From Mycobacterium phage phiGD23-1, in the sequence record MW314855.1: a stretch of 60,535 nt of DNA. One strand, 5' to 3'. The notes under the pieces were generated by a model. The model searched no databases. It had not been told where the DNA came from and saw only the letters and a list, made by a program, of their open reading frames with translations. Below, piece after piece: positions 4,267-32,820 of the stretch. Numbering within the stretch: position 1 is the first letter of the stretch; every line of letters starts with the position of its first letter. Made by a program: the position numbers and the translations under genes.

Positions 4267-5097
4267 ATGGCTGTTACCCATTTCATCCCCGAAATCTGGT
4301 CGTCCTACATTCTTGAGCGCTACATGGCCAAGAATGTGTTCGCCTCCCTCGTTGACCGCAAGTACGAAGGTGAAGCCCGCAAGGGCAACACCATCCACAT
4401 CCCCGGTGTGGTCGCCCCGGCGGTCAAGGACTACAAGGCGGCTAGCCGCACCACGTCGGCAGACGCCATCAGCGACACCGGAATCGACATCCTGATCGAT
4501 CAGGAGAAGAACTTCGACTTCTACGTCGACGACATCGACAACGCGCAGTCGAACGAAAACCTGCTGCCGCTGTACACCGACGCCGCCGGTGACTCGCTGG
4601 CCACCGACGCCGACCAGTTCATCGCCAACCTGCTTGTCGCCAACGCCACCGGCATGCCATGGTCGTCCAACCCCACCACGGGAGATGGCGCGTTCAACGT
4701 CGTCAAGGACGCCCGCAAGCTGATGAACAAGGCCAACGTTCCTGACGACGATCTGCGTGTCGCGGTTGTGAACGCCGAGTTCGAAGCCTTGCTGGTCGGT
4801 GCTGATTCGAAGCTCACCAGCTTCGATTCGTCCGGCGACACCGCTGGTCTGCGCAACGCCACTGTTGGAAAGCTGCTCGGATTCCGTGTGGTTACCTCGA
4901 ACAACCTGCCTGAGTCTGACTCGCCGCAGGCCGTGTTCTTCCACCAGCGTGCCGCAGCGTTCGTGTCTCAGATTGACGAGGTCGAAGGCATGCGCGCACA
5001 GGACAAGTTCGCCGACCGCATCCGCGGCCTGCATGTGTACGGCGGCAAGGTCGTTCAGGCCCCCGGCGTGCTCGTCTTCAACCGGGCCGGCAGCTAG
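4267..5097 (+). CDS. Major capsid protein
   Basis: 276-aa ORF after the scaffold gene, strong RBS GGAAGGAG upstream; position in head module. Confidence 0.6.
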   Translation: MAVTHFIPEIWSSYILERYMAKNVFASLVDRKYEGEARKGNTIHIPGVVAPAVKDYKAASRTTSADAISDTGIDILIDQEKNFDFYVDDIDNAQSNENLLPLYTDAAGDSLATDADQFIANLLVANATGMPWSSNPTTGDGAFNVVKDARKLMNKANVPDDDLRVAVVNAEFEALLVGADSKLTSFDSSGDTAGLRNATVGKLLGFRVVTSNNLPESDSPQAVFFHQRAAAFVSQIDEVEGMRAQDKFADRIRGLHVYGGKVVQAPGVLVFNRAGS

Positions 5098-5669
5098 TGC
5101 TGGCATCTCCCGCTGACGTCGCCCACGCCCTAGGGCTGGAAGACGAGAACGAGCTCACCGCCTCCCAGCAGGCCCGTGTCGAGGGCCTGCTGGAGAGGGT
5201 GTCTCGAAGGTTTCAGCGGGAGGCCGGACGAACCCTGACCGCAGGGGCGGTGACCGTGCGTGCACTCACGGTGGAGGGCCGGGTACATCTACCGGACCCC
5301 CCGTCTGGAGACACTGTTACGGTCACCGACCTCTGTGGTAACACGCTCGAAGGTGTCATCGAGGGCGACTACGTTGATGTCACCCGCAACGGGTGCCCTG
5401 TCGCCACGGGTGAAATCCTTGTCGTCGAATACACCCGAGATGAGCCGCCCCAGGCCGCAATAGATGCGGTAGCGGCGATGGTCGCGCGCCACCTCACGGT
5501 GGAACCCGGTTCACCCGAATCGAAGTCCACCGACCTCACCGCGGGCGCGGATTTTCGGCAGCGTCTTGCCGACTGGGTGTCTGACACATCCTTGTTCACC
5601 GACGAGGAACTAGCGGAGGCGAGAAGCTACCGCTACCCCGTCCCTAATGTGATCATCCACCGCCTGTGA
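5097..5669 (+). CDS. Head-to-tail adaptor/connector
   Basis: Position after the capsid gene; overlapping start/stop with neighbours. Confidence 0.45.
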   Translation: MLASPADVAHALGLEDENELTASQQARVEGLLERVSRRFQREAGRTLTAGAVTVRALTVEGRVHLPDPPSGDTVTVTDLCGNTLEGVIEGDYVDVTRNGCPVATGEILVVEYTRDEPPQAAIDAVAAMVARHLTVEPGSPESKSTDLTAGADFRQRLADWVSDTSLFTDEELAEARSYRYPVPNVIIHRL

Positions 5670-6001
5670 CCTTCGAATCACTGGCCAGGATCCCGGTCAC
5701 GTACACCCCATACACGGGTGTCACTCAGGATTCCCTAGGGAACGATGTTCCCTCATTCGGCCCCACAGTGGACCTGAAGGCGTACTCGTATGCCCCGCAC
5801 CGGACTGAAGACACGGACGGGCACACCTCACGCGATATCGCAGAAGTCGATCTAGCCATGCCCCCCATGACCGTTGATCTGATGTCCCGATTCGGGATCA
5901 ATGGGAAAACCTACGAGGTGGTGGGTGAACGCGACGAAACAGGCGGATTCCACGGCTGGAAGCCAGGAATCATCGTCGAGCTGAAAAGGGTGACCGGATA
6001 G
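5666..6001 (+). CDS. Head-to-tail connector (GTG start)
   Basis: GTGA overlap with upstream stop; synteny. Confidence 0.4.
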   Translation: MTFESLARIPVTYTPYTGVTQDSLGNDVPSFGPTVDLKAYSYAPHRTEDTDGHTSRDIAEVDLAMPPMTVDLMSRFGINGKTYEVVGERDETGGFHGWKPGIIVELKRVTG

Positions 6002-6267
6002 TGGCCAAGTTCAGGCTGAATCGTAAGGCGCAGAGCGAATTGACGAAGGAAATCGTCGAGAAGGTCTGCGTTCCCATGATGCAGCGGGTCGCTGACGCCT
6101 GCAACCAAGAAGCGGGACTGGAAGACGGTTTCCGCGTCTCGGTAGAAGGCGATGATCCTTTGGATAAGCGCGACTACCGGGCAACAGCTATCGCCGCAAC
6201 GGCAGAGGCCATCCGGTACGACCACAAGCACGACGCACTGCTACACAACTTTGGCGAGGCTGGCTGA
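6001..6267 (+). CDS. Head-to-tail connector / head closure
   Basis: Synteny, coupled starts. Confidence 0.4.
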   Translation: MAKFRLNRKAQSELTKEIVEKVCVPMMQRVADACNQEAGLEDGFRVSVEGDDPLDKRDYRATAIAATAEAIRYDHKHDALLHNFGEAG

Positions 6268-6644
6268 TGTTCGCCTACCACGCCCAAGTGGTCAGGGACT
6301 GGCTGGACGAAAACATGCCGGTTCGGGTGTCCACTGACGTGCCGAAAACGCGCCCAGCGCAGCTGATCACAATCGATTCAGCGCCAATCTCTAGCGGATA
6401 CTCGGGAACCAAAGCCCGCGTACTCGCACGGCGCCGACTGATCATCTACTCATGGGGCGCCAACGAACTGGACGCATACAACCTGATCGAGCAGACGCGT
6501 GAATGGCTCCTCAAACTCCCCGGCAAGGGCCGCGGAGTGCACGCTGTAGACATCGCAGGGGAACCTGCCCGCCGCGATGACATCGAAAGCGAAACGCGAC
6601 GGTTCGTGATGACCGTCGATGTATTAATGCGTTCAAATCCCTGA
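6267..6644 (+). CDS. Tail terminator / neck protein
   Basis: Synteny immediately before the major tail gene. Confidence 0.4.
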   Translation: MFAYHAQVVRDWLDENMPVRVSTDVPKTRPAQLITIDSAPISSGYSGTKARVLARRRLIIYSWGANELDAYNLIEQTREWLLKLPGKGRGVHAVDIAGEPARRDDIESETRRFVMTVDVLMRSNP

Positions 6645-23787: not shown

Positions 23788-24009
23788 ATGTCCATCCGGG
23801 AACAACTGGCCGAGGCCGCCAAGCCGAAGCAGCGCTGCACATGCTGTGCATGGGTCGCTACGCAGAGTGCAGATGACCGTAAGGCTATTGAGGAATGGGT
23901 AGCCGAAGGGAAGTCGATTGAGGCGCTTGTCCGCGTGCTGCGGAATGAGGGTCTTCCGGTGGGGCCGGTGCAGTTCCGGCGTCACGTGCGAGAGTGTGTG
24001 CGCTCTTGA
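23788..24009 (+). CDS. Hypothetical protein (73 aa)
   Basis: ORF with RBS. Confidence 0.35.
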   Translation: MSIREQLAEAAKPKQRCTCCAWVATQSADDRKAIEEWVAEGKSIEALVRVLRNEGLPVGPVQFRRHVRECVRS

Positions 24010-25241
24010 GTATCCGTGACAGCCTCAATAGTCGCCGCCCCGTGCCGGAAGAGTCGGCACCAGAGCAGGCGAAAATGCGCGCGGAGTGGGACGGCACCGC
24101 AGGTTTTATTCAGACGGGCAAGGTCTCAGATGACTTCGATGAGCAGGACTTCGAGGGCATCCTTCGCGAGTTCGCCGACGAACTGCACTACGACCCAGCC
24201 AAGGTTGAGATTGCCGGTAACCCACAGGTCGTGGTGTGGGAGACGGGCTTCCGCAACAAGGAGGGGGAGTGGGAGAAGCATAAGCACCACTCCTGGCGGT
24301 ATCACCTCGCCGTCCGGCGTTGGGCTATAGACCTACCCGCCTTGTATGCGGAGGTCCGCAAGACGAGGCCGGTGCAGCCGAAGAAACCCACAGGGGAGTC
24401 GACGGTTGTGGTGTGCTGGGCAGACATTCAAACCGGGAAGGTCGACCACCTCGGCGGCGTCAAAGAGTTATTACTGCGCCTTCAGGAAAAGCGGGAAAAC
24501 CTGAACGCCTACCTGAAACGTTCAAGGTTTGATCGCATCATCATCGCGGACGTGGGCGACATTGTGGAGGGCTTCGACAACGTCACAGCCCAAACCCGCA
24601 CCAACGGCCTATCTCTCATGGATCAGGTCGAGGTTGCCGCCACGGAGTTCTGGAAGACCATCACCCTGTGCGCCAAGCACGCCCCGGTGGATGTGCTGTC
24701 CATCCCGTCCAATCACGGCCAGTGGCGCCGCGGGAAGGATCTAATCGGGAAGCCCACCGACGACTGGGGATTGGCTATCTCGAAACGTCTTGAATGGCAC
24801 AACAACCCCGACAACCAAGGCCCGAACCTGCCGGTAGATTTCCACCGGCCGCCCGAGTGGTGCGAGACACTGCAGTTCGATGTACGCGGCACCAGGTTGG
24901 GGTTGGCGCATGGCCACCAAGCCTCCGGCGCTGACCGGGTTAAGACGTGGTGGGAGAAGATGACCCACGGCGGCGTCATGGACTGCCACGTCCTCTTGAC
25001 TGGACATTTCCACTACGCCAGCCTGCGCCCCCATGGGCGGGATCAAGTAACGGGTAAGGCGCGCTGGCACATCCAAGCCTCAACCCTGGACAACGGCTCC
25101 GCATGGGTGATGAACAAGATGGGCGAAGACGGAGATCCGGCACTGACGGTGTGTTCCAGATCAACAACGACGGCTTCGACGTACAGAGCTTCGCCCTCCT
25201 ATGAAACGTCACGATACGATTCAAGTAGGCGCCAACGCTGA
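23994..25241 (+). CDS. Calcineurin-like metallophosphoesterase
   Basis: Motifs DVGDIVEG, PSNHGQW (GNH[DE]-like) and GHFHY (GHxH). Confidence 0.55.
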   Translation: MCALLSIRDSLNSRRPVPEESAPEQAKMRAEWDGTAGFIQTGKVSDDFDEQDFEGILREFADELHYDPAKVEIAGNPQVVVWETGFRNKEGEWEKHKHHSWRYHLAVRRWAIDLPALYAEVRKTRPVQPKKPTGESTVVVCWADIQTGKVDHLGGVKELLLRLQEKRENLNAYLKRSRFDRIIIADVGDIVEGFDNVTAQTRTNGLSLMDQVEVAATEFWKTITLCAKHAPVDVLSIPSNHGQWRRGKDLIGKPTDDWGLAISKRLEWHNNPDNQGPNLPVDFHRPPEWCETLQFDVRGTRLGLAHGHQASGADRVKTWWEKMTHGGVMDCHVLLTGHFHYASLRPHGRDQVTGKARWHIQASTLDNGSAWVMNKMGEDGDPALTVCSRSTTTASTYRASPSYETSRYDSSRRQR

Positions 25242-25848
25242 AAAGCGCTGCCCGAGATGCGAAACCGTCAAGCCCGTCACGGCATTCTCGGTTGACCGTA
25301 ACCGAAAAAGCGGCCGAAACTGTTACTGCCTCGAATGTACGCGTAGGACCAACCGGGCGTCGTATAGCCGGAACTTCGAGGGTGGGAAAGCCCGGAAGGC
25401 GGCAGCCTACAAGCGTGACCGTGAGAAGTTTTTGGCGCGAAACAGGCGCTGGCGGGCTGATAATTACGAACGCGAGCTGGAAACGAACCGTAAGTACTAC
25501 CACGATAACAAGGCTCAAGTTCGGGCCTGGCACAAGCGCTACTACGAAGCTAATAAGGATGCAGCTTTCGCGGCAAGTCAGCGGCGGCGAGCTCGCATGC
25601 GGTCCGCTGCTACCGCCCCGTTCTCCATGGACGATCTGCGGATGAAGTGGCGCTACTGGGGTAATAGGTGCTGGATCTGCGGCGGGAATCCCACTGCGAC
25701 TGATCACGTCAAGCCACTGAGCAAAGGCGGTGCCCATATGCTGTGCAACCTCAGGCCGATCTGCAAACCTTGCAACTCGGCAAAGCATGACAAGTGGCCG
25801 TATCAGCGTCCGATACCCGCTGATACTTCCGAAGATGTCGCGAGCTAG
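25201..25848 (+). CDS. HNH endonuclease
   Basis: Cys-rich N-terminus and a C-terminal HNH motif (DHVKPLSKGG...CNLRPICKPCNSAKHDK). Confidence 0.7.
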   Translation: MKRHDTIQVGANAEKRCPRCETVKPVTAFSVDRNRKSGRNCYCLECTRRTNRASYSRNFEGGKARKAAAYKRDREKFLARNRRWRADNYERELETNRKYYHDNKAQVRAWHKRYYEANKDAAFAASQRRRARMRSAATAPFSMDDLRMKWRYWGNRCWICGGNPTATDHVKPLSKGGAHMLCNLRPICKPCNSAKHDKWPYQRPIPADTSEDVAS

Positions 25849-25850
25849 CT

Positions 25851-26075
25851 ATGAGTGAACACCCTGACGAACTCATACAGAAGTACGTCGAAGCAATGGA
25901 TCAAGAACCGGGCTGGCGGGTATCAGATTTCGTGCTCATGGTCGGGTTCGAGAGAGTCCAAGCGGACGGCACCATAGAGCACACTTACGGCGTGCATGAA
26001 GGTGAGAACCAATCGCCCTGGGCTACACACGGTTTAGTCGCCAACGGTATAGAACACCTAGAACGAACTGAGTGA
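25851..26075 (+). CDS. Hypothetical protein (74 aa)
   Basis: ORF abutting the HNH gene. Confidence 0.35.
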   Translation: MSEHPDELIQKYVEAMDQEPGWRVSDFVLMVGFERVQADGTIEHTYGVHEGENQSPWATHGLVANGIEHLERTE

Positions 26076-26396
26076 CTACGGCTGGCTGTTCCAATGGGCT
26101 AGGTCTTCATCGTCGATCAGTGTGACGACTATCTGGGCGATCCGCTCATCACTCTCGTCAGTGCCGTAGTCCACGATCCACGCCCAGATGTCGTAGCCGC
26201 CGTCGCCGAATCCTGCCGAAAACTGCACCCCGGACCCGTACTTACTGAATAGGTTGTGACCACTACCGATTCCTGGATACTTGGCTGGGGCAAAAGCGGG
26301 GTCGGTGATCGCGGCCATGGCCGAGTCGACCGAGACGCCGCCGATGCGTTCCCATCGACCGTTGCGGCCTGGGGCTGGTGTTGGTGGTTCACCCAT
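26076..26396 (-). CDS. Hypothetical protein (106 aa), reverse-oriented moron preceded by a SAS-like element
   Basis: Only minus-strand gene in a forward block; start codon is the ATG of the conserved 44-nt element E. Confidence 0.5.
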   Translation of the reverse strand: MGEPPTPAPGRNGRWERIGGVSVDSAMAAITDPAFAPAKYPGIGSGHNLFSKYGSGVQFSAGFGDGGYDIWAWIVDYGTDESDERIAQIVVTLIDDEDLAHWNSQP

Positions 26397-26437
26397 CCCT
26401 CAATTTTACGCCGTTGCAGTCGAAGTCGCGGTGTCTA
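26394..26437 (-). promoter_or_regulatory. SAS-like 44-nt element E (minus strand): TAGACACCGCGACTTCGACTGCAACGGCGTAAAATTGAGGGATG
   Basis: Matches consensus TAGACACCGC-N21-wAAwTTGAGGTATG; ends at the start codon of 26076..26396. Confidence 0.7.
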
Positions 26438-26452
26438 GGCCCCGCGCGAGGA

Positions 26453-26493
26453 GAGCGCGCAGGGAACTAGCTCACCGTACCGCGCTCTTTTTT
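26453..26493 (+). terminator. Hairpin GAGCGCG (26453-59) / CGCGCTC (26481-87) followed by T6
   Basis: Inverted repeat plus U-tract on the plus strand. Confidence 0.45.
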
Positions 26494-26576
26494 AGATGTA
26501 TCTGGTGTTGCGTCGAAAAATAGCCCGCTGCCTGCATGTTTCTTTTTTATCCACAACCTAATCGGGGAGGGTTCCC

Positions 26577-26819
26577 ATGGCCTTACATCCATCTGATTGG
26601 GCGTGGATCACTATGGCTGCTGGGATCGTCGCCTACGAGATAGCTTGCCCACCCGGGGAACTGCTATCGGACGCCACTGCACGGTACGGGCAGTCCCACA
26701 TGTTCCTCAGCTCCGCCGTGATCGGGGTAGTGGCCGTTCATCTGCTGCGCACCACCGGACTGCTGCGGTTCATCCCCGAACAGCTCGACCTAATCCATTT
26801 GTTGGCTTCACTGAAATGA
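26577..26819 (+). CDS. Small membrane protein
   Basis: 80 aa, two hydrophobic helices, RBS GGGGAGG. Confidence 0.4.
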   Translation: MALHPSDWAWITMAAGIVAYEIACPPGELLSDATARYGQSHMFLSSAVIGVVAVHLLRTTGLLRFIPEQLDLIHLLASLK

Positions 26820-26881
26820 GAGGACACCGCTATGTGCAGAGTTGAGACCTGGAAGTGTGAGCCGACAGTGGAGACTTCGCG

Positions 26882-27229
26882 GTGAACATGGCCGACTGGC
26901 AGCTGCCGCCACTTGCTCAAGACGGCTGGGGCCTAGCGACCTGGGTAGTAATAGCATTCGTCGTCATGTGTTTCCTCGGCATCCTGTGGACGCTGCAACA
27001 CTTCGACCTCAAAGCCATCCGGCACCAAACAGAGAACTCCCACGACACCAACCTGCGTGACGACATCGACGAGATACGCGAGATGGTCCGCGACGGAATG
27101 GCCGACATCCGCAGCGATATCTCCGGTATCCGAAAAGACATCGGAGGACTGCGCGGAGAGCTGCGCACCGAACGCGAAGAACGCATCGAATCCGACGCCC
27201 GCATATGGCGGGGACCCTGGAAGGCTTAG
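26882..27229 (+). CDS. Membrane protein with coiled-coil C-terminal domain
   Basis: 115 aa, N-terminal TM helix, charged repeat-rich C-terminus. Confidence 0.4.
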   Translation: MNMADWQLPPLAQDGWGLATWVVIAFVVMCFLGILWTLQHFDLKAIRHQTENSHDTNLRDDIDEIREMVRDGMADIRSDISGIRKDIGGLRGELRTEREERIESDARIWRGPWKA

Positions 27230-27267
27230 ACCCCGCCGTTAGCGCTTACCGCCAATAGAATTGGGGT

Positions 27268-27522
27268 ATGACAGCGGGGCAATGGTTTGGAACCGTTCTT
27301 ATGATCGTGTTCGGAGTGTGGTTCGTTGGATTCAATATCCTCCTTTGGGTAGGCGACCGCATAGATAAACGGAACCGCGCCGAACTGGCAGACATCAGTC
27401 GGGACTTCGACGCGCTAGGCCCAAATCCGAGCCTTGAGGAGATGCAGCCAGCGCTAGATCGTCTCGCCGCCTACCGAATCAGGTTTGAGAACTGGCGCTC
27501 GCCCACCAGTAATCCGACCTGA
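27268..27522 (+). CDS. Small membrane protein
   Basis: 84 aa, N-terminal TM helices. Confidence 0.4.
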   Translation: MTAGQWFGTVLMIVFGVWFVGFNILLWVGDRIDKRNRAELADISRDFDALGPNPSLEEMQPALDRLAAYRIRFENWRSPTSNPT

Positions 27523-27541
27523 GCCCCCTCGCTTCACAGCC

Positions 27542-27592
27542 GCCCCCGGCTCCCGTGCTTCCCCCCAGCATGGTTGAGCCGGGGGCTTTTTT
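27542..27592 (+). terminator. Rho-independent terminator: GCCCCCGGCTC (27542-52) pairs with GAGCCGGGGGC (27576-86), followed by TTTTTT
   Basis: 11-bp GC stem plus a U6 tract; ends the rightward late operon before attP. Confidence 0.65.
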
Positions 27593-27684
27593 GCGTTGTG
27601 GACCTGCGGCGATGCTTCCCAGCAACGGGGTGCGGTGGCCCGTAAGGGCTCTCGGTATGCTCTCTAGGCTCGGAGCGAAAACCG

Positions 27685-27906
27685 TTAGGCTACAGTCTAG
27701 GCTACAGTTGGCTTAGGATTTAGTCAGGAAATACGCCCTGAGCAGCGATGGGGCGGTAGCTCAGTTGGTTAGAGCCGTGGACTCATAATCCGTTTGGATG
27801 GTAGAATCATCAGCATGAATGGTCGCATTTGCGCAGCTAGGGCGACTTTCATGTGTTGCACTGTCTAGTCGCATGTAGCCCAATAGGCTACAGTGTTGGC
27901 TACAGT
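27685..27906 (+). other. attP: attP region: four direct arm-type repeats (T)AGGCTACAGT (27685-27696, 27697-27708, 27884-27894, 27898-27906) flanking a tRNA-like core
   Basis: Tandem 9-12-nt direct repeats on both sides of a tRNA-like sequence, immediately upstream of the tyrosine integrase gene. Confidence 0.55.
27750..27792 (+). other. Partial tRNA-like sequence (acceptor 5' strand, D-arm, anticodon arm with CAT anticodon; no T-arm); candidate attP common core matching a host tRNA
   Basis: GGGGCGGTAGCTCAGTTGGTTAGAGC with D-arm GCTC/GAGC, anticodon loop CTCATAA; downstream sequence lacks GGTTCGAATCC. Confidence 0.45.
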
Positions 27907-27928: not shown

Positions 27929-29065
27929 ATGGGGCAAAGGCGCACCCGCGGTGACGGGGGACTCTACAAACGCAGCGATGGCATGTGGGTCGGAGCCGTC
28001 GATATCCCCACCGAAGATGGAAAGCGCCGACGCCGAACTGTCTCCTCGAAAGACAAGGCAACCGCCCTGGCGAAGCTGCGCACCCTGCGATCTGAGATCA
28101 CATCGGGGAAGGCGCCCACAACCTCCAACACCACACTCGAACAGTGGCTCACCCACTGGCTTGAGACCATCCAGAAGCCGCGCGTACGTCCAACCACATT
28201 CAAGTACTACGAGACCACCGTCCGTCTCTATATCCTGCCGTTCCTTAACGGCAGTGTGAGGCTGGGCAAGCTCACCCCGGCGGAAGTACGCAAGATGATC
28301 GCCCGCAATGGAACACGCAACGCACAGAAGGCCCACCAGACTCTCGTGAAAGCGCTCGGCGATGCCATGGACGAGGGGATGTTGGATCGCAATGTCGCAG
28401 CGGTCGTCGACAAGCCCAGGCATGTCGCCGAGGAGCGCCAACCGTTCACATTCGCAGAATCTCGCCAAATCATCACCACCGCATTCGAGATCAACGATCC
28501 ATGGGCGACGATGTGGACTTCCATGTTCTTCACCGCCGCCCGGCAGGGCGAGATCATCGGCATGGAGTCCGACCGCTGCGACCTTATCGAGGGGCTGTTC
28601 GACTTCGGTTGGCAGCTACAACAGCTGCCGTCCGATCTTCCAAAAGGCTTCAACTACCGGCCCTGCTACAAGTCCCTGGTGTGGACCAAGCCAAAGAACA
28701 AAGCCGGTGACCGCATCGCCCCAATGACTGCGCCAGTCTGGGCAATGATGAAGACCTACGTCGCCAACGACACCAGACCCAACCCCCACGGCCTGGTATG
28801 GCGGCATGAAGACGGTCACCCGATCTCACCCACTGACGCCTCCGAGGCGTGGCGAGCATTACTGAAAGCTGCCGGCGTGCGGTACCGGTCAATGCACTCG
28901 GCCCGCCACACCACTTCAACGCTGCTCAACAAAGCCCGCGTCTCCCAGGAGACGCGCATGAAAGTGGTTGGCCACTCAACCGCGGCTGCGCACCAGGGCT
29001 ATGTACACGTGGACCACGAGACGGCCCGCGCGGCGCTGTCGAACCTCAATGAGTTGTTGGATTGA
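27929..29065 (+). CDS. int: Tyrosine integrase
   Basis: N-terminal RGDGGLYKR motif, C-terminal catalytic region (…HSARHTTSTLL…HQGYVH) typical of phage tyrosine recombinases; adjacent to attP. Confidence 0.85.
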   Translation: MGQRRTRGDGGLYKRSDGMWVGAVDIPTEDGKRRRRTVSSKDKATALAKLRTLRSEITSGKAPTTSNTTLEQWLTHWLETIQKPRVRPTTFKYYETTVRLYILPFLNGSVRLGKLTPAEVRKMIARNGTRNAQKAHQTLVKALGDAMDEGMLDRNVAAVVDKPRHVAEERQPFTFAESRQIITTAFEINDPWATMWTSMFFTAARQGEIIGMESDRCDLIEGLFDFGWQLQQLPSDLPKGFNYRPCYKSLVWTKPKNKAGDRIAPMTAPVWAMMKTYVANDTRPNPHGLVWRHEDGHPISPTDASEAWRALLKAAGVRYRSMHSARHTTSTLLNKARVSQETRMKVVGHSTAAAHQGYVHVDHETARAALSNLNELLD

Positions 29066-29067
29066 GT

Positions 29068-29703
29068 TCAGCCTGCTAATTCTGGGTGGACCGTGCCGCT
29101 ATCGCGGATATCCCATATTTTTCCGGTGTCAACGCCGTTGAAGTTTATTCGATCGAGAGTGACTTTTTCGTATCCCACATTCAAGACGATGGTGTCCTGA
29201 TTGCTGTTTCCGTATGCATCCTTGGTCGGAAAGGTTCCTTGTATGAAGACCTTTGTGGCGTTGGGGTATTCGGAGTGTGCGTACTTGAGCGCTTCGATGG
29301 TCTTGTTTTGGGCTCCACGGCGCGTAAGCCCCATAAAGACTGCGTCAGAGATTCTGAAGCTTCCGAAGACGACCTCTCCACTCGATCCCGACTCTGTCCG
29401 AAAGGAGACACCTTCGGGCGGTTTTGGCTTCTGAGGTTCTACCGGTCGCGCAGGTTCGACCAGCGCGGGCGCTGATGCTTTCGTTGCCGTGCCAGTGTGG
29501 GTGGATGGCTGAGTATCCTTACGGTCTTGTCCCCCGATCAATCCGATCAGGAAGAGGACGGCAACTGCCCCCACGATCCACGGCCACTTGGGCGTTTCCT
29601 TCTTATTGGGCGACCGCATCAGCTGGTCCGTCCATCTAGCCCCATCGAAGTATCGCAGCCCCGGAGCGCCTGACGGATCTGGATACCAACCCGGCATTGA
29701 CAT
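29068..29703 (-). CDS. DUF2510-type membrane protein (N-terminal GWYPDPSG…RYFDGARWTDQ, one TM helix, extracytoplasmic domain); candidate prophage-expressed exclusion or defence protein
   Basis: Motif seen in the translation; start taken at the internal ATG (29703) with a GGGGG RBS rather than the track start 29817; convergent with int. Confidence 0.5.
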   Translation of the reverse strand: MSMPGWYPDPSGAPGLRYFDGARWTDQLMRSPNKKETPKWPWIVGAVAVLFLIGLIGGQDRKDTQPSTHTGTATKASAPALVEPARPVEPQKPKPPEGVSFRTESGSSGEVVFGSFRISDAVFMGLTRRGAQNKTIEALKYAHSEYPNATKVFIQGTFPTKDAYGNSNQDTIVLNVGYEKVTLDRINFNGVDTGKIWDIRDSGTVHPELAG

Positions 29704-30014
29704 TGCGGCCCCCTTATTCATTGTTGACCTGCAAATCCTACGACTTTGATAGGAGTCTGCGTGCCCATCTGAGAAGTCGAATTTGGTCCCGGCGTTCACG
29801 CTCGGGGTCATGCTCACGGCTTAGGTATTCATCGAGGGCGCGCTGCATGTCGGGGTCTCTCAGCGCTCCCATGGTGCGCCGTTCTGCTGGTACCACTGCT
29901 CGCGTCTTTCCTGTGACCACCATGGCGCAGGTGGGCCGAAAGGGTGTGTGAAGCCCCAGCGGAATGCCGGGTTATTGAACGCGAACCACGGATGCAGAAG
30001 CCGCAGGAGCCTCA

Positions 30015-30197
30015 TCACGACCTCCAGTCCTGAGGAACCGGCCGCCCCTCGGATACGTCCCGAGCGCATGCCCGCATGCCGTATTCGATCGCTCCCGAGT
30101 AGAACCTCGAGTATCGGCCGGCGAAGGTCCGCAAGATCCAATTGGCCAACCGTATCGCCCCGCGCTCAACAACGGTAGCGCCGCCAAGTTCGCTCAT
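30015..30197 (-). CDS. Hypothetical 60-aa protein preceded by SAS-like element F
   Basis: Its start codon is the ATG of the conserved 44-nt element. Confidence 0.45.
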   Translation of the reverse strand: MSELGGATVVERGAIRLANWILRTFAGRYSRFYSGAIEYGMRACARDVSEGRPVPQDWRS

Positions 30198-30238
30198 ACC
30201 CCAATTGTCCCGCGTTTCAGGCGAAGTCGCGGTGTCTA
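30195..30238 (-). promoter_or_regulatory. SAS-like 44-nt element F (minus strand): TAGACACCGCGACTTCGCCTGAAACGCGGGACAATTGGGGTATG; its TAG is the stop codon of 30236..30457
   Basis: Matches the consensus; exact stop-to-start spacing of 44 nt. Confidence 0.7.
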
Positions 30239-30457
30239 CCGCGTCCGGATTCTCAGTAGCCGGTTTACGGTCACCGGATCAGACTTTAGGGCGTCTTCAC
30301 TTTCCAGGATCTGGTTGAGCTTCTGGTAGTACCTCACGGGGGAGAGCCCAAACCGGTCCTGGATGGCCTTCTCTTTGTCTCCGATCTGGCTCCACCAAAT
30401 GTTCTCGAATGCAAGCACTTCCGCAGTATTCGGGCCGATCACGGTATCCACATCCAT
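30236..30457 (-). CDS. DUF3263-like small protein (HTH-like FGLSPVRYYQKLNQ segment)
   Basis: 73 aa; sequence pattern recalled for the actinobacterial DUF3263 family; overlaps by 19 nt with the upstream ImmA-like gene. Confidence 0.45.
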   Translation of the reverse strand: MDVDTVIGPNTAEVLAFENIWWSQIGDKEKAIQDRFGLSPVRYYQKLNQILESEDALKSDPVTVNRLLRIRTR

Positions 30458-30882
30458 TCGTCACCGAGGACGTGTTCAAGTTCAGCGGTTTCCATCGGGT
30501 CGAGCGTGGACATTCGCGTTCGCAGCGTTGGGCCATCCACCCACAGTCCTTCGGCCAGCTCGTCGCAATCTTGCGTCCATCGCAAGCCGTCCACCAAATC
30601 GCCGAAGGTGATGAGTCGTCGCGCAGCGAGCTCGTCAACGATGCGTTCTTCGCGTGCGGCTGCCCTTGGGTCGGTGGGCAGCGGTCCGCGTTCCCAGTGG
30701 ATCAGTTCGTGGGTCAGGGTGCATCGCCGATGGACCTGCTGCAATCGTTTGCACAGCCAAATCTTTTGGCGCGTGAAGCTGGTCAGCCCCCACACTTGTT
30801 CGGGTAGTTCCCGGCGACAATTGATGACCACATGGGGGTAGTGATCAGCGGCGTAGCGCCAGGGATGCCAACGTTGGCTCAT
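30439..30882 (-). CDS. ImmA/IrrE-family (COG2856) zinc metallopeptidase
   Basis: HEXXH motif (THELIHWERG) in a protein of about 147 aa; track ORF runs to 30975 but the start is probably at the internal Met (MSQRWHPW…). Confidence 0.5.
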   Translation of the reverse strand: MSQRWHPWRYAADHYPHVVINCRRELPEQVWGLTSFTRQKIWLCKRLQQVHRRCTLTHELIHWERGPLPTDPRAAAREERIVDELAARRLITFGDLVDGLRWTQDCDELAEGLWVDGPTLRTRMSTLDPMETAELEHVLGDEWMWIP

Positions 30883-31011
30883 GGTGGTGAAGCTAGCGTC
30901 ACCCACTGACAAAAATGGCTCTGACCAGGAACTACATGGATGTAACTTCTCCACGGCAAGGGCCTGCCAAATCACATCAGAGAAACCTCAGATGTGCGTT
31001 ATCGTTGAGTC

Positions 31012-31281
31012 ATGACCGCCGCGATCAGCTACGAAAGCGTCTCGTCCATCGTGGAGACGGACGCTCATGCCGAGTTGCGCGTGTCTGGCAAGCCGAACGC
31101 GAAGTATGTGCAGGTCACCGAGTCGGATGGGACTATCCGGCTTATCCCGCTATCCCTGCTGCATGAGTCGGAGCGGGCGATCCTGGAAAACCCCGGTCTG
31201 TACAACCAGCTCCGAAGGGGTTTGACGGAGTTCGCCGAGGGGCAGAGCGTGTCTAGTGACTGGTTGTTCGCTGACGAGTGA
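31012..31281 (+). CDS. Small protein with Phd/YefM antitoxin-like features (orphan, no adjacent toxin)
   Basis: 89 aa; weak resemblance (…SGKPNAKYVQV…; C-terminal ENPGLYNQLRRG) to the YefM fold. Confidence 0.3.
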   Translation: MTAAISYESVSSIVETDAHAELRVSGKPNAKYVQVTESDGTIRLIPLSLLHESERAILENPGLYNQLRRGLTEFAEGQSVSSDWLFADE

Positions 31282-31338
31282 GCGCCGAGGAAGTTCGGTT
31301 TAGTCCATCCGTTGACCGATGGTTACGGGTCTTTTTAC

Positions 31339-31368
31339 CAAGGTTAGGGTCTATAGACCCTAACCTTG
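31339..31368. terminator. Perfect 30-bp palindrome CAAGGTTAGGGTCTA|TAGACCCTAACCTTG flanked by T-tracts, between convergent transcription units
   Basis: Perfect inverted repeat seen in the sequence; GGGTCTTTTTACC before it and CTCCCTTTTGG after it. Confidence 0.6.
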
Positions 31369-31920
31369 CTCCCTTTTGGATCGGCCCTGACTACCGTTGA
31401 ACACTGCCGCCAAACCGATCACGTCAAACACCGCAATACCGCCCCCGATCCACTCGTGGCCGAGGTAAGCGAACCATGCGGACACGGCAAACCCAGCGAG
31501 AACGGCTGCTAGCCCAAATCGTTGGCCTTGACTGCGCCCCTTATCGGGTATGCGGTAAGGGGCTTCGCGCATATAGATATCCGAGTCGACCGTCTTGCGT
31601 AATGACGAAACATATGTGTCGTACAGCTCTGGGGTGTTGTGCTTCATCCGCTCCATTTCCGCTGGATCCGGTGTCAGCAGAGGCAGATGCAGGTGATTCT
31701 CGGTGAGATACGCGGTGAGCTGTGTTAGCGAGAGACTTGGCGAAGGTTCCGATTCGCCCGCAGCAGGCTCGCGTTGAGGTTGTACGGCTCCGGGGCTGGC
31801 ATCATCTCCCTCAGTGCTTCGTACGTCGCCTCGCCCTTGATGTCGAACAGGCTTCCCAGGCCGATCAGGAACGCACGCGTCCGCGTCCCCGTGTTCGTCT
31901 CCCGAGTGCTCATGGCTCAA
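31360..31920 (-). CDS. Hypothetical protein with C-terminal TM helices, downstream of the repressor gene
   Basis: 186-aa ORF; start uncertain (an internal Met is possible). Confidence 0.35.
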   Translation of the reverse strand: MSHEHSGDEHGDADACVPDRPGKPVRHQGRGDVRSTEGDDASPGAVQPQREPAAGESEPSPSLSLTQLTAYLTENHLHLPLLTPDPAEMERMKHNTPELYDTYVSSLRKTVDSDIYMREAPYRIPDKGRSQGQRFGLAAVLAGFAVSAWFAYLGHEWIGGGIAVFDVIGLAAVFNGSQGRSKREQG

Positions 31921-31997
31921 CGATAGCTCCTTGTCATGCGGTATGTGAATGTGTTGTGCATGACGCTATCGGTCGGCATGCGGTTCAAGTGGGTAGA

Positions 31998-32792
31998 TCA
32001 CGAGTCCATGGGTCGCTGCGGCTTATCCTCGTCCGTCACCCTGCGTGCGGCTAGGCCGTAGTCGCCTGGGTTGAAGTCGACCTCCAAGTCGGATCTGTTG
32101 GGGTACATCACCTCCTCGTTTTCGTTGCCTTCCGGCGATGCTGACGGTTGCGGGGACGGGGTGGGGTCGGATGATGCGGCATGGAGGCCCTCCTTTTGTC
32201 GTTGGTCCCAGTAGCTCGTGTTATTGAATCCGTTGAGTTCTAGTTCTTGCTTGTCAAGAAACAGCCGTTGTAAAGCCGGTCGGGCAGCTGGCCCTACGCC
32301 TGCGGTCAGGAGTTGATCTGCCCAAAGGTTGGCCAGGGCGACGGCGACGCGGGCATTCTGCGCCATCGCGGCTCCAGGATCTGGGGACTCGTCGGCAACC
32401 TGACGCATTGCTGCAAGGGCTGCTTCCCATGCGGTTAAGTACCGCGGTGCGGTTTCCATCGCATGGAGATCGTCGACGGTTACGCCAGCGTGTTCTGGTC
32501 TTGGTGGGGCCGGTTCCGAAGGGGCCGGGTCGACATCAAGGGGCTCAGGCTCGGCTCCCTCGAAAATCTTCCTGACCGAGTGCTTGGCCCAGCCGAGACT
32601 CTTCTCTAGGCGTCTATACGAAAGCTCGCTGACCTCCTGGCCATTCTCAATGGCACTCATTGTGGTGCTCGAAGGGCCGTTCGGCATGTTGTCTTGCCGG
32701 TACCCCAGCCACTTGCGCCGACTCTCAACGATCTGTCCAAGTCGAAGTCGGGCTTGTTGCGGGGATTCGAGCCGCTCCTGACGTTCGGTCAT
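31998..32792 (-). CDS. Putative immunity repressor (XRE-like HTH N-terminal domain, long Pro-rich C-terminal region)
   Basis: HTH segment …LGQIVESRRKWLGYRQ…TMSAIENGQ…; divergent from a Cro-like gene with operators in between; start taken at MTERQ (32792) rather than the track 32969. Confidence 0.5.
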   Translation of the reverse strand: MTERQERLESPQQARLRLGQIVESRRKWLGYRQDNMPNGPSSTTMSAIENGQEVSELSYRRLEKSLGWAKHSVRKIFEGAEPEPLDVDPAPSEPAPPRPEHAGVTVDDLHAMETAPRYLTAWEAALAAMRQVADESPDPGAAMAQNARVAVALANLWADQLLTAGVGPAARPALQRLFLDKQELELNGFNNTSYWDQRQKEGLHAASSDPTPSPQPSASPEGNENEEVMYPNRSDLEVDFNPGDYGLAARRVTDEDKPQRPMDS

Positions 32793-32802
32793 ACGGCAAG
32801 AC

Positions 32803-32820
32803 TGCCAAAAATTTTTGGCA
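32803..32820. promoter_or_regulatory. Perfect 18-bp palindrome TGCCAAAAATTTTTGGCA, candidate operator 11 nt upstream of the repressor start
   Basis: Perfect inverted repeat in the divergent repressor/cro intergenic region. Confidence 0.55.

Follow-up and report, generated by a model that had tools for sequence, protein, structure and literature searches.

A metallopeptidase gene overlapping a DUF3263 gene in Mycobacterium phage phiGD23-1: candidate distal genes of an actinobacterial lysogeny switch

In ICEBs1 of Bacillus subtilis, the peptidase ImmA cuts the repressor ImmR at F95|M96, and in Deinococcus the peptidase IrrE (PprI) cuts DdrO at L106|R107; both sites lie near the C-terminus of the repressor (PMC6868357). 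In the integration-dependent immunity of the mycobacteriophages BPs, Brujita and Charlie, an ssrA-like --LAA tag at the C-terminus and host proteases together determine how active the repressor is (PMC9262239). The induction of mycobacterial and related prophages is poorly understood, and M. abscessus prophages are relevant to phage therapy and to the diversity of strains. Here we analysed the 60,535-nucleotide (nt) sequence of Mycobacterium phage phiGD23-1 (record MW314855.1; this whole stretch is the window), in which the gene of a HEXXH metallopeptidase overlaps that of a 73-amino-acid (aa) DUF3263 protein. We propose, at a probability of about 0.6, that the two genes are the distal part of a three-gene actinobacterial lysogeny switch (repressor, peptidase, NapA-like DUF3263 protein) and that the protease targets the repressor. 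An earlier note on this DNA had identified the two proteins and had named the immunity repressor 1 kb away as a possible target of the peptidase. Both parts were supported, and the repressor as target is the reading best supported by the comparative evidence of synteny and of a co-varying tail motif. The note's further suggestions, namely a reversed gene order, DUF3263 as a substitute partner and a toxin-antitoxin (TA)-like module, were not supported. The genes are already annotated publicly as "IrrE-like", "metallo-protease" and "DUF3263".

The peptidase and its overlapping partner

The two genes and their sequence features are as follows (positions are those of the window).

30439..30882, minus strand: M78 (ImmA/IrrE-like) zinc metallopeptidase, 147 aa, ATG start; based on phrog_87, fold match and catalytic residues
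30697..30711, minus strand: HELIH zinc-binding/catalytic motif of the peptidase, residues 58-62, read from the sequence
30646..30648, minus strand: E79 of the peptidase, candidate third zinc ligand, from invariance among homologues
30439..30457, minus strand: 19-nt overlap between the end of the peptidase gene and the start of the DUF3263 gene, read from the sequence, consistent with translational coupling
30236..30457, minus strand: DUF3263/NapA-like small DNA-binding protein, 73 aa, ATG start; PF11662 and NapA matches
30311..30352, minus strand: helix-turn-helix (HTH)-like segment FGLSPVRYYQKLNQ of the DUF3263 protein, from the helices of the AlphaFold model

Both minus-strand open reading frames (ORFs) are thus present where the earlier note had placed them, with the 19-nt overlap that it had described. 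The peptidase matched the metallo-protease family phrog_87 (E = 1.5e-17), and residues H58, E59, H62, E78 and E79 were invariant among 43 homologues. When PDB sequences were searched with a profile of the peptidase alignment, the matches were marginal only (minigluzincin MJ1213, selecase; E = 0.09), so a fold search was needed. With the AlphaFold2 model (pLDDT 94), the best Foldseek matches in the PDB were IrrE (3DTE), PprI (8SLN) and M. tuberculosis PrpR (6CZ6), at probability 1.0, TMq 0.54-0.67 and E ~1e-2. The assignment to M78, which supports the ImmA/IrrE-like identity given earlier, stands on phrog_87, the fold match and the catalytic residues, the Pfam match being weak. Judged from the model, the peptidase is a minimal IrrE-like protein consisting of the core and a C-terminal helical HTH-like region, without a GAF domain. 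Its family comprises 1820 cluster representatives, nearly all of them stand-alone proteins of 135-165 aa. Searches of NCBIfam and PADLOC with the peptidase gave no match, and a sigma-70 promoter scan showed no convincing promoter for its gene. Reading by eye only, we noted TAGCTT, a -10-like hexamer, 7 nt before the peptidase ATG (a possible leaderless start).

The partner had been described as a DUF3263 HTH protein, and this was borne out by its match to Pfam PF11662 (88.5 bits, cut-off 22.3, E = 2.6e-25). In the AlphaFold model, the segment FGLSPVRYYQKLNQ runs from the last part of helix 28-36 through the turn into helix 40-51, most of which it covers, and it includes R42 and Q45, which together with N65, R66 and R69 are the basic or polar residues that are invariant in the family. 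The protein also aligned with the M. tuberculosis NapA chains 9N2G and 9N2N, which were solved with AT-rich DNA (E = 4e-14, ~47% identity over residues 12-72, a 61-residue core). Its match to the NCBIfam NapA equivalog NF053843 lay below the cut-off (71.5 bits, cut-off 160) and covered only positions 36-98 of 113, and it is therefore a homologue of NapA and not an orthologue. M. tuberculosis NapA binds and protects AT-rich DNA (PMC10665949). By sequence, the phage protein is a core-only paralogue of this AT-rich-preferring nucleoid-associated protein, and binding of AT-rich DNA is predicted for it from homology to the DNA-bound 9N2N.

The starts of both genes differ in the deposited annotation of the near-identical prophiGD11-1, where the peptidase begins at GTG 30975 (178 aa, 31 codons earlier) and DUF3263 at GTG 30442 (68 aa, 5 codons later), giving a 4-nt GTGA overlap. 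Most peptidase homologues are 140-147 aa long and align from residue 1-5, the "MD.." N-terminus of DUF3263 is conserved, and a database entry identical to the 73-aa form was seen on 161 contigs. The homologues thus favour the ATG starts (147 aa and 73 aa) over the annotated GTG starts, and the two genes overlap under either choice. The extra 31 peptidase codons of the annotation (30883..30975) overlie an upstream element shared with the repressor gene, listed in the last section. The pair is not a chance arrangement, because the same order and strand recur in 88 fetched loci, 87 of them with overlap or abutment: DUF3263 homology begins inside the peptidase ORF in 66 of the 88, and no more than 30 nt from the peptidase stop in 87.

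Gene order and repressor tails in relatives

Gene order was compared in 80 IMG/VR loci and 76 genome loci, with 164 loci in the wider counts, all under crude ORF calling. By tblastn, 260 phage records have the peptidase and 233 have DUF3263, mostly Gordonia phages but also Mycobacterium clusters including Che9c, Sbash, Tortellini and Dori. More than 100 related loci share the order XRE-type immunity repressor, peptidase, DUF3263 and, usually, integrase. In Sbash, Brocalys, Cashline, BritBrat, prophiGD12-2 and REQ2, the gene that immediately precedes the peptidase gene on its strand is an annotated immunity repressor, and among the crude upstream ORFs the XRE-type families HTH_31 and HTH_3 were matched by 26/76 and 22/76, respectively. 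The gap between repressor and peptidase in these relatives is ~60-180 nt. Repressor, peptidase, DUF3263 and integrase occupy a single strand in Che9c, Sbash, Cashline, BritBrat and prophiGD12-2, and the gene string runs on into the integrase in Sbash, Che9c and REQ2, the last having repressor, peptidase and integrase only. In Sbash, genes 40-43 (integrase, DUF3263, IrrE-like and repressor) are transcribed in lysogens (PMC6426596).

DUF3263 was the next gene after the peptidase on its strand in 57 of the 80 IMG/VR and 25-27 of the 76 genome loci, and it was found nowhere else in a locus. It is optional, being present in 88 of the 164 peptidase loci and absent from 76; Brocalys, REQ2, the Jatrophihabitans group and many Actinomycetota prophages have the peptidase without it. 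These comparisons overturn two points of the earlier note. It had taken the order of the pair as reversed, peptidase first; in relatives, the XRE-type repressor stands directly upstream of the peptidase, as ImmR precedes ImmA in the canonical arrangement (immR-immA-int in ICEBs1), and DUF3263 is a third, optional gene downstream. It had also let DUF3263 replace the XRE partner, which does not agree with the 76 loci that lack DUF3263, where the tail motif described below is kept (Brocalys, REQ2 and the Jatrophihabitans group). Repeatedly, insertions lie between repressor and peptidase or between DUF3263 and integrase, but never between peptidase and DUF3263. Those between repressor and peptidase include prophiGD43A-1, Oregano (a TA pair) and Che9c, and in the window phage, too, a 1.1-kb insertion has parted the repressor from the peptidase operon.

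The repressor of the window and its tail are given by the next two features.

31998..32792, minus strand: immunity repressor, 264 aa, XRE-like N-terminus, presumed peptidase substrate; from identity to the prophiGD21-2 repressor
32037..32063, minus strand: repressor tail motif DYGLAARRV, residues 244-252, candidate recognition/cleavage site; from motif enrichment

This repressor is 100% identical to the annotated immunity repressor of prophiGD21-2, the only one to which its gene is identical, and its N-terminus resembles the Sbash repressor gp43 and the immunity repressors of Gordonia phages. Its tail reads DFNPGDYGLAARRVTDEDKPQRPMDS. The upstream repressors of the related loci diverge strongly after the HTH, yet many carry (D/E)(Y/F)x(L/V)AA-R(R/K)(G/V) ~12-32 residues from the C-terminus. 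Defined strictly as A[AS]R[RKH][GVE] within the last 45 aa, the pattern was present in 64/164 same-strand upstream loci compared with 18/5002 control ORFs, an enrichment of more than 100-fold; an earlier subset had given 28/76 and 12/1583 (Fisher p = 5e-31). The repressor bodies fell into 12 clusters with homologous N-terminal HTH domains. A description of the repressors as otherwise unrelated was dropped, since single-linkage clustering of the bodies merged most of them via the shared HTH domain.

The motif tracks the peptidase and not the repressor body, and we regard this modular co-variation as stronger evidence than the enrichment counts. Among M. abscessus prophages whose peptidases are 97-100% identical to that of the window phage, the repressor bodies are only 24-31% identical to that of its repressor, whereas their last 30 residues are 60-100% identical. 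In prophiGD43A-1, the repressor body is 94% identical to that of the window phage over 242 aa, the peptidase is 46% identical and the tail is unrelated. The repressor of prophiGD17-2, a prophage without the peptidase, was checked for the tail motif and has none. Moreover, Brocalys and REQ2, which lack DUF3263, have the motif, and it therefore goes with the peptidase and not with DUF3263. From this co-variation, we infer that the peptidase would act by site-specific cleavage of its cognate repressor.

The left half of the tail motif, DYGLAA, resembles DYALAA, the end of the mycobacterial ssrA tag. In M. tuberculosis this tag is AADSHQRDYALAA, which is degraded by ClpXP1P2 and ClpC1P1P2 (PMC4416901). 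The C. glutamicum tag likewise ends in DYALAA, and the repressor tail of one relative has the exact DYALAA-RRG. An ssrA-like pattern was found in 17/459 upstream tails compared with 1/4228 controls (p = 9e-17).

Two relatives showed further details of repressors and their tails. prophiGD27-1 (L090) has two annotated immunity repressors, at 4381..5271 and 5919..6311. One carries a peptidase-type tail, GEYGLAARRVEGFDKPE, and the other is a full-length match to the motif-less repressor of prophiGD17-2, where it is annotated from 16 codons further upstream. In Che9c, gp46 (annotated as "transcriptional regulator"; L002, 3..695) is separated by gp45 and gp44 from the peptidase, 2.8 kb downstream, and ends in a variant of the tail motif, DDLGIAARTAPPGYPKGQ. 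By its tail and its position, gp46 is probably the cognate repressor. The variant AAR-xPPGY recurs in L032, L106 and L109.

The proposed switch and its alternatives

If the protease targets the repressor, a signal would lead the peptidase to recognise and cut the repressor tail, the repressor would become inactive and the prophage would be induced, as in ImmA/ImmR and IrrE/DdrO. The cut would probably fall before Arg (AA|R; compare L|R for IrrE in DdrO), predicted here as ...GLAA | RRVTDEDKPQRPMDS. After this cut the repressor might end in ...DYGLAA, a mimic of the ssrA tag that could direct it to Clp proteases. Latent ClpX signals that are exposed by cleavage are known from LexA and RseA. Unmasking of a Clp degron is more attractive than loss of dimerisation, because the removed piece is short and looks disordered.

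The DUF3263 protein would be made by translational coupling with the peptidase and would assist the switch while bound to DNA: it could be a sensor or adaptor for the peptidase, or an architectural co-factor at regulatory or att DNA of the phage. That it acts together with the peptidase is suggested by the tight translational coupling and by possible fusions of the two, and it would perhaps link the peptidase to DNA, much as the activity of PprI is tied to DNA by its sensing of single-stranded DNA. The fusions are two apparent peptidase-DUF3263 proteins, P0379 (L171, 44..745; full DUF3263 domain) and P0355 (partial domain); the P0379 contig is metagenomic and 1 kb long. We put forward an accessory role alongside the peptidase tentatively, as somewhat short of an even chance. 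The DUF3263 protein is probably neither a substrate nor an antitoxin. It was also considered as an excisionase (Xis), which is unlikely: excisionase genes are annotated separately in Sbash and prophiGD12-2, and the Sbash homologue belongs to the lysogenically expressed 40-43 block.

In its fullest form, the proposal would amount to an undescribed induction circuit: the protease would clip the last 12-30 residues from the repressor at LAA|R(R/K), creating a C-terminal degron for ClpXP/ClpC1P, and the coupled NapA copy would tie the protease to the state of the DNA. We consider this complete circuit speculative and on balance unlikely.

Several points weigh against the switch or parts of it. The peptidase remained below the Pfam cut-off for M78 (PF06114; 13.5 bits, E = 0.066, cut-off 22), although a few of its homologues have a precomputed PF06114 match. 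The strict tail motif was found in only 39% of loci under crude ORF calling, and variants such as AAR-TAPPGY of Che9c were recognised by eye. The P-values of the enrichments overstate independence, because the loci are related and the repressor HTH domains are homologous. The predicted cut would remove only ~15 residues, which fits a degron and is without precedent in ImmR or DdrO. In the window, the repressor and the peptidase lie apart, and a hairpin between them (31339..31368) may end the repressor transcript, so that their co-expression is only putative. The apparent fusions are on short metagenomic contigs, where frameshift artefacts could account for them. DUF3263 also adjoins a tyrosine integrase without the peptidase in 17 phage records (15 Arthrobacter, 2 Microbacterium), and its function therefore need not involve the peptidase. 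No functional study of the peptidase/DUF3263 module was found in the literature searched. Two of the 17 records provide located examples.

Arthrobacter phage Auxilium 2965..3177 (L087): DUF3263 gene beside the integrase, no HEXXH peptidase nearby
Microbacterium phage Footloose 2995..3255 (L088): DUF3263 gene beside the integrase, no HEXXH peptidase nearby

The alternative that survives best keeps the peptidase as an anti-repressor and makes DUF3263 independent of it, as an architectural co-factor of the integrase in integration or excision, or a silencer of AT-rich phage DNA during lysogeny, that is linked to the peptidase by operon position only. This would agree with the Auxilium and Footloose arrangements, with the DUF3263 genes of Che9c and Sbash, which overlap the integrase start too, and with the binding and protection of AT-rich DNA by NapA; the candidate operator of the window phage likewise has an AT-rich core. 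In other phages, moreover, the slot between protease and integrase is filled by unrelated lysogeny genes, for instance one with a match to the Ltp lipoprotein. Mere operon position sits poorly, however, with insertions that split the other neighbours and never the peptidase from DUF3263, with reading frames that overlap in 66 of 88 loci, and with the fusion proteins. The separate excisionases and the lysogenic expression speak against a directionality factor, though not against an integration co-factor. Overall, we hold an independent DUF3263 to be possible but rather unlikely.

A second alternative concerns the step at which the repressor is inactivated. In the phage TP-J34 of Streptococcus thermophilus, Rir acts on Crh without cutting it, and such a block, documented for one COG2856/XRE pair (PMC6868357), also weakens the case for cleavage here. 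The tail motif would then be a docking site only, and as it lies in a short terminal tail, its loss would not obviously disrupt the fold. On the other side, the full HEXXH+E set is invariant across the phage family, whereas the extended motif is imperfect in Rir, and the conserved basic residue after AA corresponds to the P1' Arg of the IrrE site in DdrO. Blocking without cutting thus seems quite improbable, and cleavage of the repressor tail remains the step that we favour.

The weakest alternative takes the peptidase and DUF3263 as cognate partners, in a self-contained COG2856/HTH TA (as the earlier note had considered) or abortive-infection module or with DUF3263 as the substrate, and it is very improbable: it can draw on the strict co-occurrence and overlap of the genes, with DUF3263 always directly downstream when present, on the two apparent fusions, on COG2856/XRE pairs that are sometimes linked to toxin genes (PMC6868357) and on the location of the pair in a prophage region rich in lysogenic-conversion genes, but neither protein matched a PADLOC defence family at E <= 1, the AAR tail motif was looked for in DUF3263 and is absent, DUF3263 is homologous to a nucleoid protein and not to a known antitoxin, recognisable bona fide TA pairs are separate insertions beside the module (Oregano, Brocalys and prophiGD12-2), and the two genes are not obligately co-inherited as a self-sufficient pair, since 76 of 164 peptidase loci lack DUF3263 and keep the upstream repressor and motif, and 17 phage records have DUF3263 without the peptidase.

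Surroundings in the window and comparison with known systems

From 29900 to 31300, the window is 100% identical to the M. abscessus prophages prophiGD11-1 and prophiGD21-2 of cluster MabA1. By sequence comparison, the phage is an M. abscessus MabA1 temperate phage with prophiGD21-2 as its nearest relative. The part from 24000 to 27791 aligned with the right (attR-proximal) end of prophage records, and the part from 27750 onward with the left (attL-proximal) end. GC content was equal on either side of the ~27750..27791 junction, and no tRNA was found when one was looked for there. The window is therefore a whole, permuted phage genome in the attP form, without host DNA; host chromosome to the left of ~27750, which had been considered, was ruled out on the same evidence. 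Around the repressor and the peptidase, the following features were recorded.

31012..31988, mixed strands: inserted block between repressor and peptidase, which are 1.1 kb apart; prophiGD11-1 annotation
31012..31281, plus strand: gene 8, 89 aa, divergent from the peptidase; prophiGD11-1 annotation
31339..31368: hairpin with a perfect 13-bp stem, between the convergent gene 8 and membrane-protein gene
31360..31920, minus strand: membrane-protein gene; prophiGD11-1 annotation
31917..31988, minus strand: tiny ORF; prophiGD11-1 annotation
30953..30971, plus strand: copy 1 of the shared element (ACGGCAAG-N3-CTGCCAAA), 71-90 nt upstream of the peptidase start
32793..32809, plus strand: copy 2 of the shared element, abutting the repressor start and overlapping the palindrome
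32803..32820, plus strand: 18-bp perfect palindrome TGCCAAAAATTTTTGGCA, candidate operator with an AT-rich core
27929..29065, plus strand: tyrosine integrase (Pfam PF00589, phrog_1, annotation), in the same lysogeny region and convergent with the peptidase gene string

The element ACGGCAAG-N1-3-CTGCCAAA occurs in exactly two copies in the 60.5-kb genome, a number reached in 0 of 100 shuffles, and this 17-19-nt element was all that the regions upstream of the repressor and the peptidase had in common, a global alignment of the two being uninformative. It may be a common control site through which the split operons would be co-regulated. Only on the plus strand does a T-run follow the hairpin, which may end the transcript of gene 8 and perhaps that of the repressor. 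Gene 8 matched no Pfam or PHROG family, its PDB sequence search gave a marginal match, and tblastn against phages found it in three identical MabA1 prophages only. A 40-aa ORF (31278..31400) overlaps the end of gene 8 by 4 nt and runs into the convergent gene; judged by eye, the two could be the remnant of a small two-gene cassette. Past DUF3263, the leftward string continues over 29068..30197 with three small ORFs and a DUF2510 membrane protein, convergent with the integrase, and these genes may have a role in lysogenic conversion.

Should the module be an induction switch, it would offer a directly testable handle with three pieces, namely a protease, a short motif of the repressor and a small DNA-binding protein; more than 260 sequenced actinobacteriophage records have it, as do prophages across Actinomycetota. 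Immunity specificity (the repressor body) and inducibility (the tail with the protease) would then be modules that can be exchanged one without the other, as is suggested by the M. abscessus prophages, and this would explain one induction pathway common to repressors of differing immunity specificity. It would also open a route to non-inducible or hyper-inducible engineered prophages and give the DUF3263/NapA family a role in mobile elements.

Compared with known systems, the module resembles ICEBs1 ImmR/ImmA in combining, on one strand, an XRE repressor, a small stand-alone HEXXH M78 peptidase and an integrase, as seen here in Sbash, Che9c and REQ2. It differs in its negligible sequence identity, with a Pfam M78 score below the cut-off, and in the displacement of the repressor by 1.1 kb in the window phage. 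IrrE/DdrO provides the best structural match (3DTE, 8SLN) and shares HEXXH with a downstream Glu, and cleavage by IrrE before Arg parallels the AA-R of the phage tail motif. Unlike the phage peptidase, IrrE has a C-terminal GAF-like domain, and IrrE/DdrO is chromosomal and governs DNA repair genes, with no adjacent integrase and no NapA-like partner. Rir/Crh of TP-J34 is likewise a COG2856/XRE pair of a temperate phage, and is required for prophage induction; Rir acts without cleavage and has an imperfect extended metalloprotease motif, whereas the catalytic residues of the phage peptidase are invariant. In integration-dependent immunity, the tag stands at the terminus and is lost on integration, whereas the ssrA-like sequence here is internal to the tail and would have to be exposed by the phage protease. 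NapA (Rv0430) of M. tuberculosis is of the same DUF3263 family, with ~47% identity over the 61-residue core, but it is a host nucleoid protein, and the phage protein is a core-only form of 73 aa encoded in a prophage lysogeny operon, its gene overlapping that of a peptidase. Relative to ImmR/ImmA, the new elements, as read from the sequences, would be a NapA-like third component, whose translation is coupled to that of the peptidase, and an ssrA-like repressor tail linked to the protease; if the proposal is true, the ImmR/ImmA paradigm would gain this third component and possibly a step of degron unmasking.

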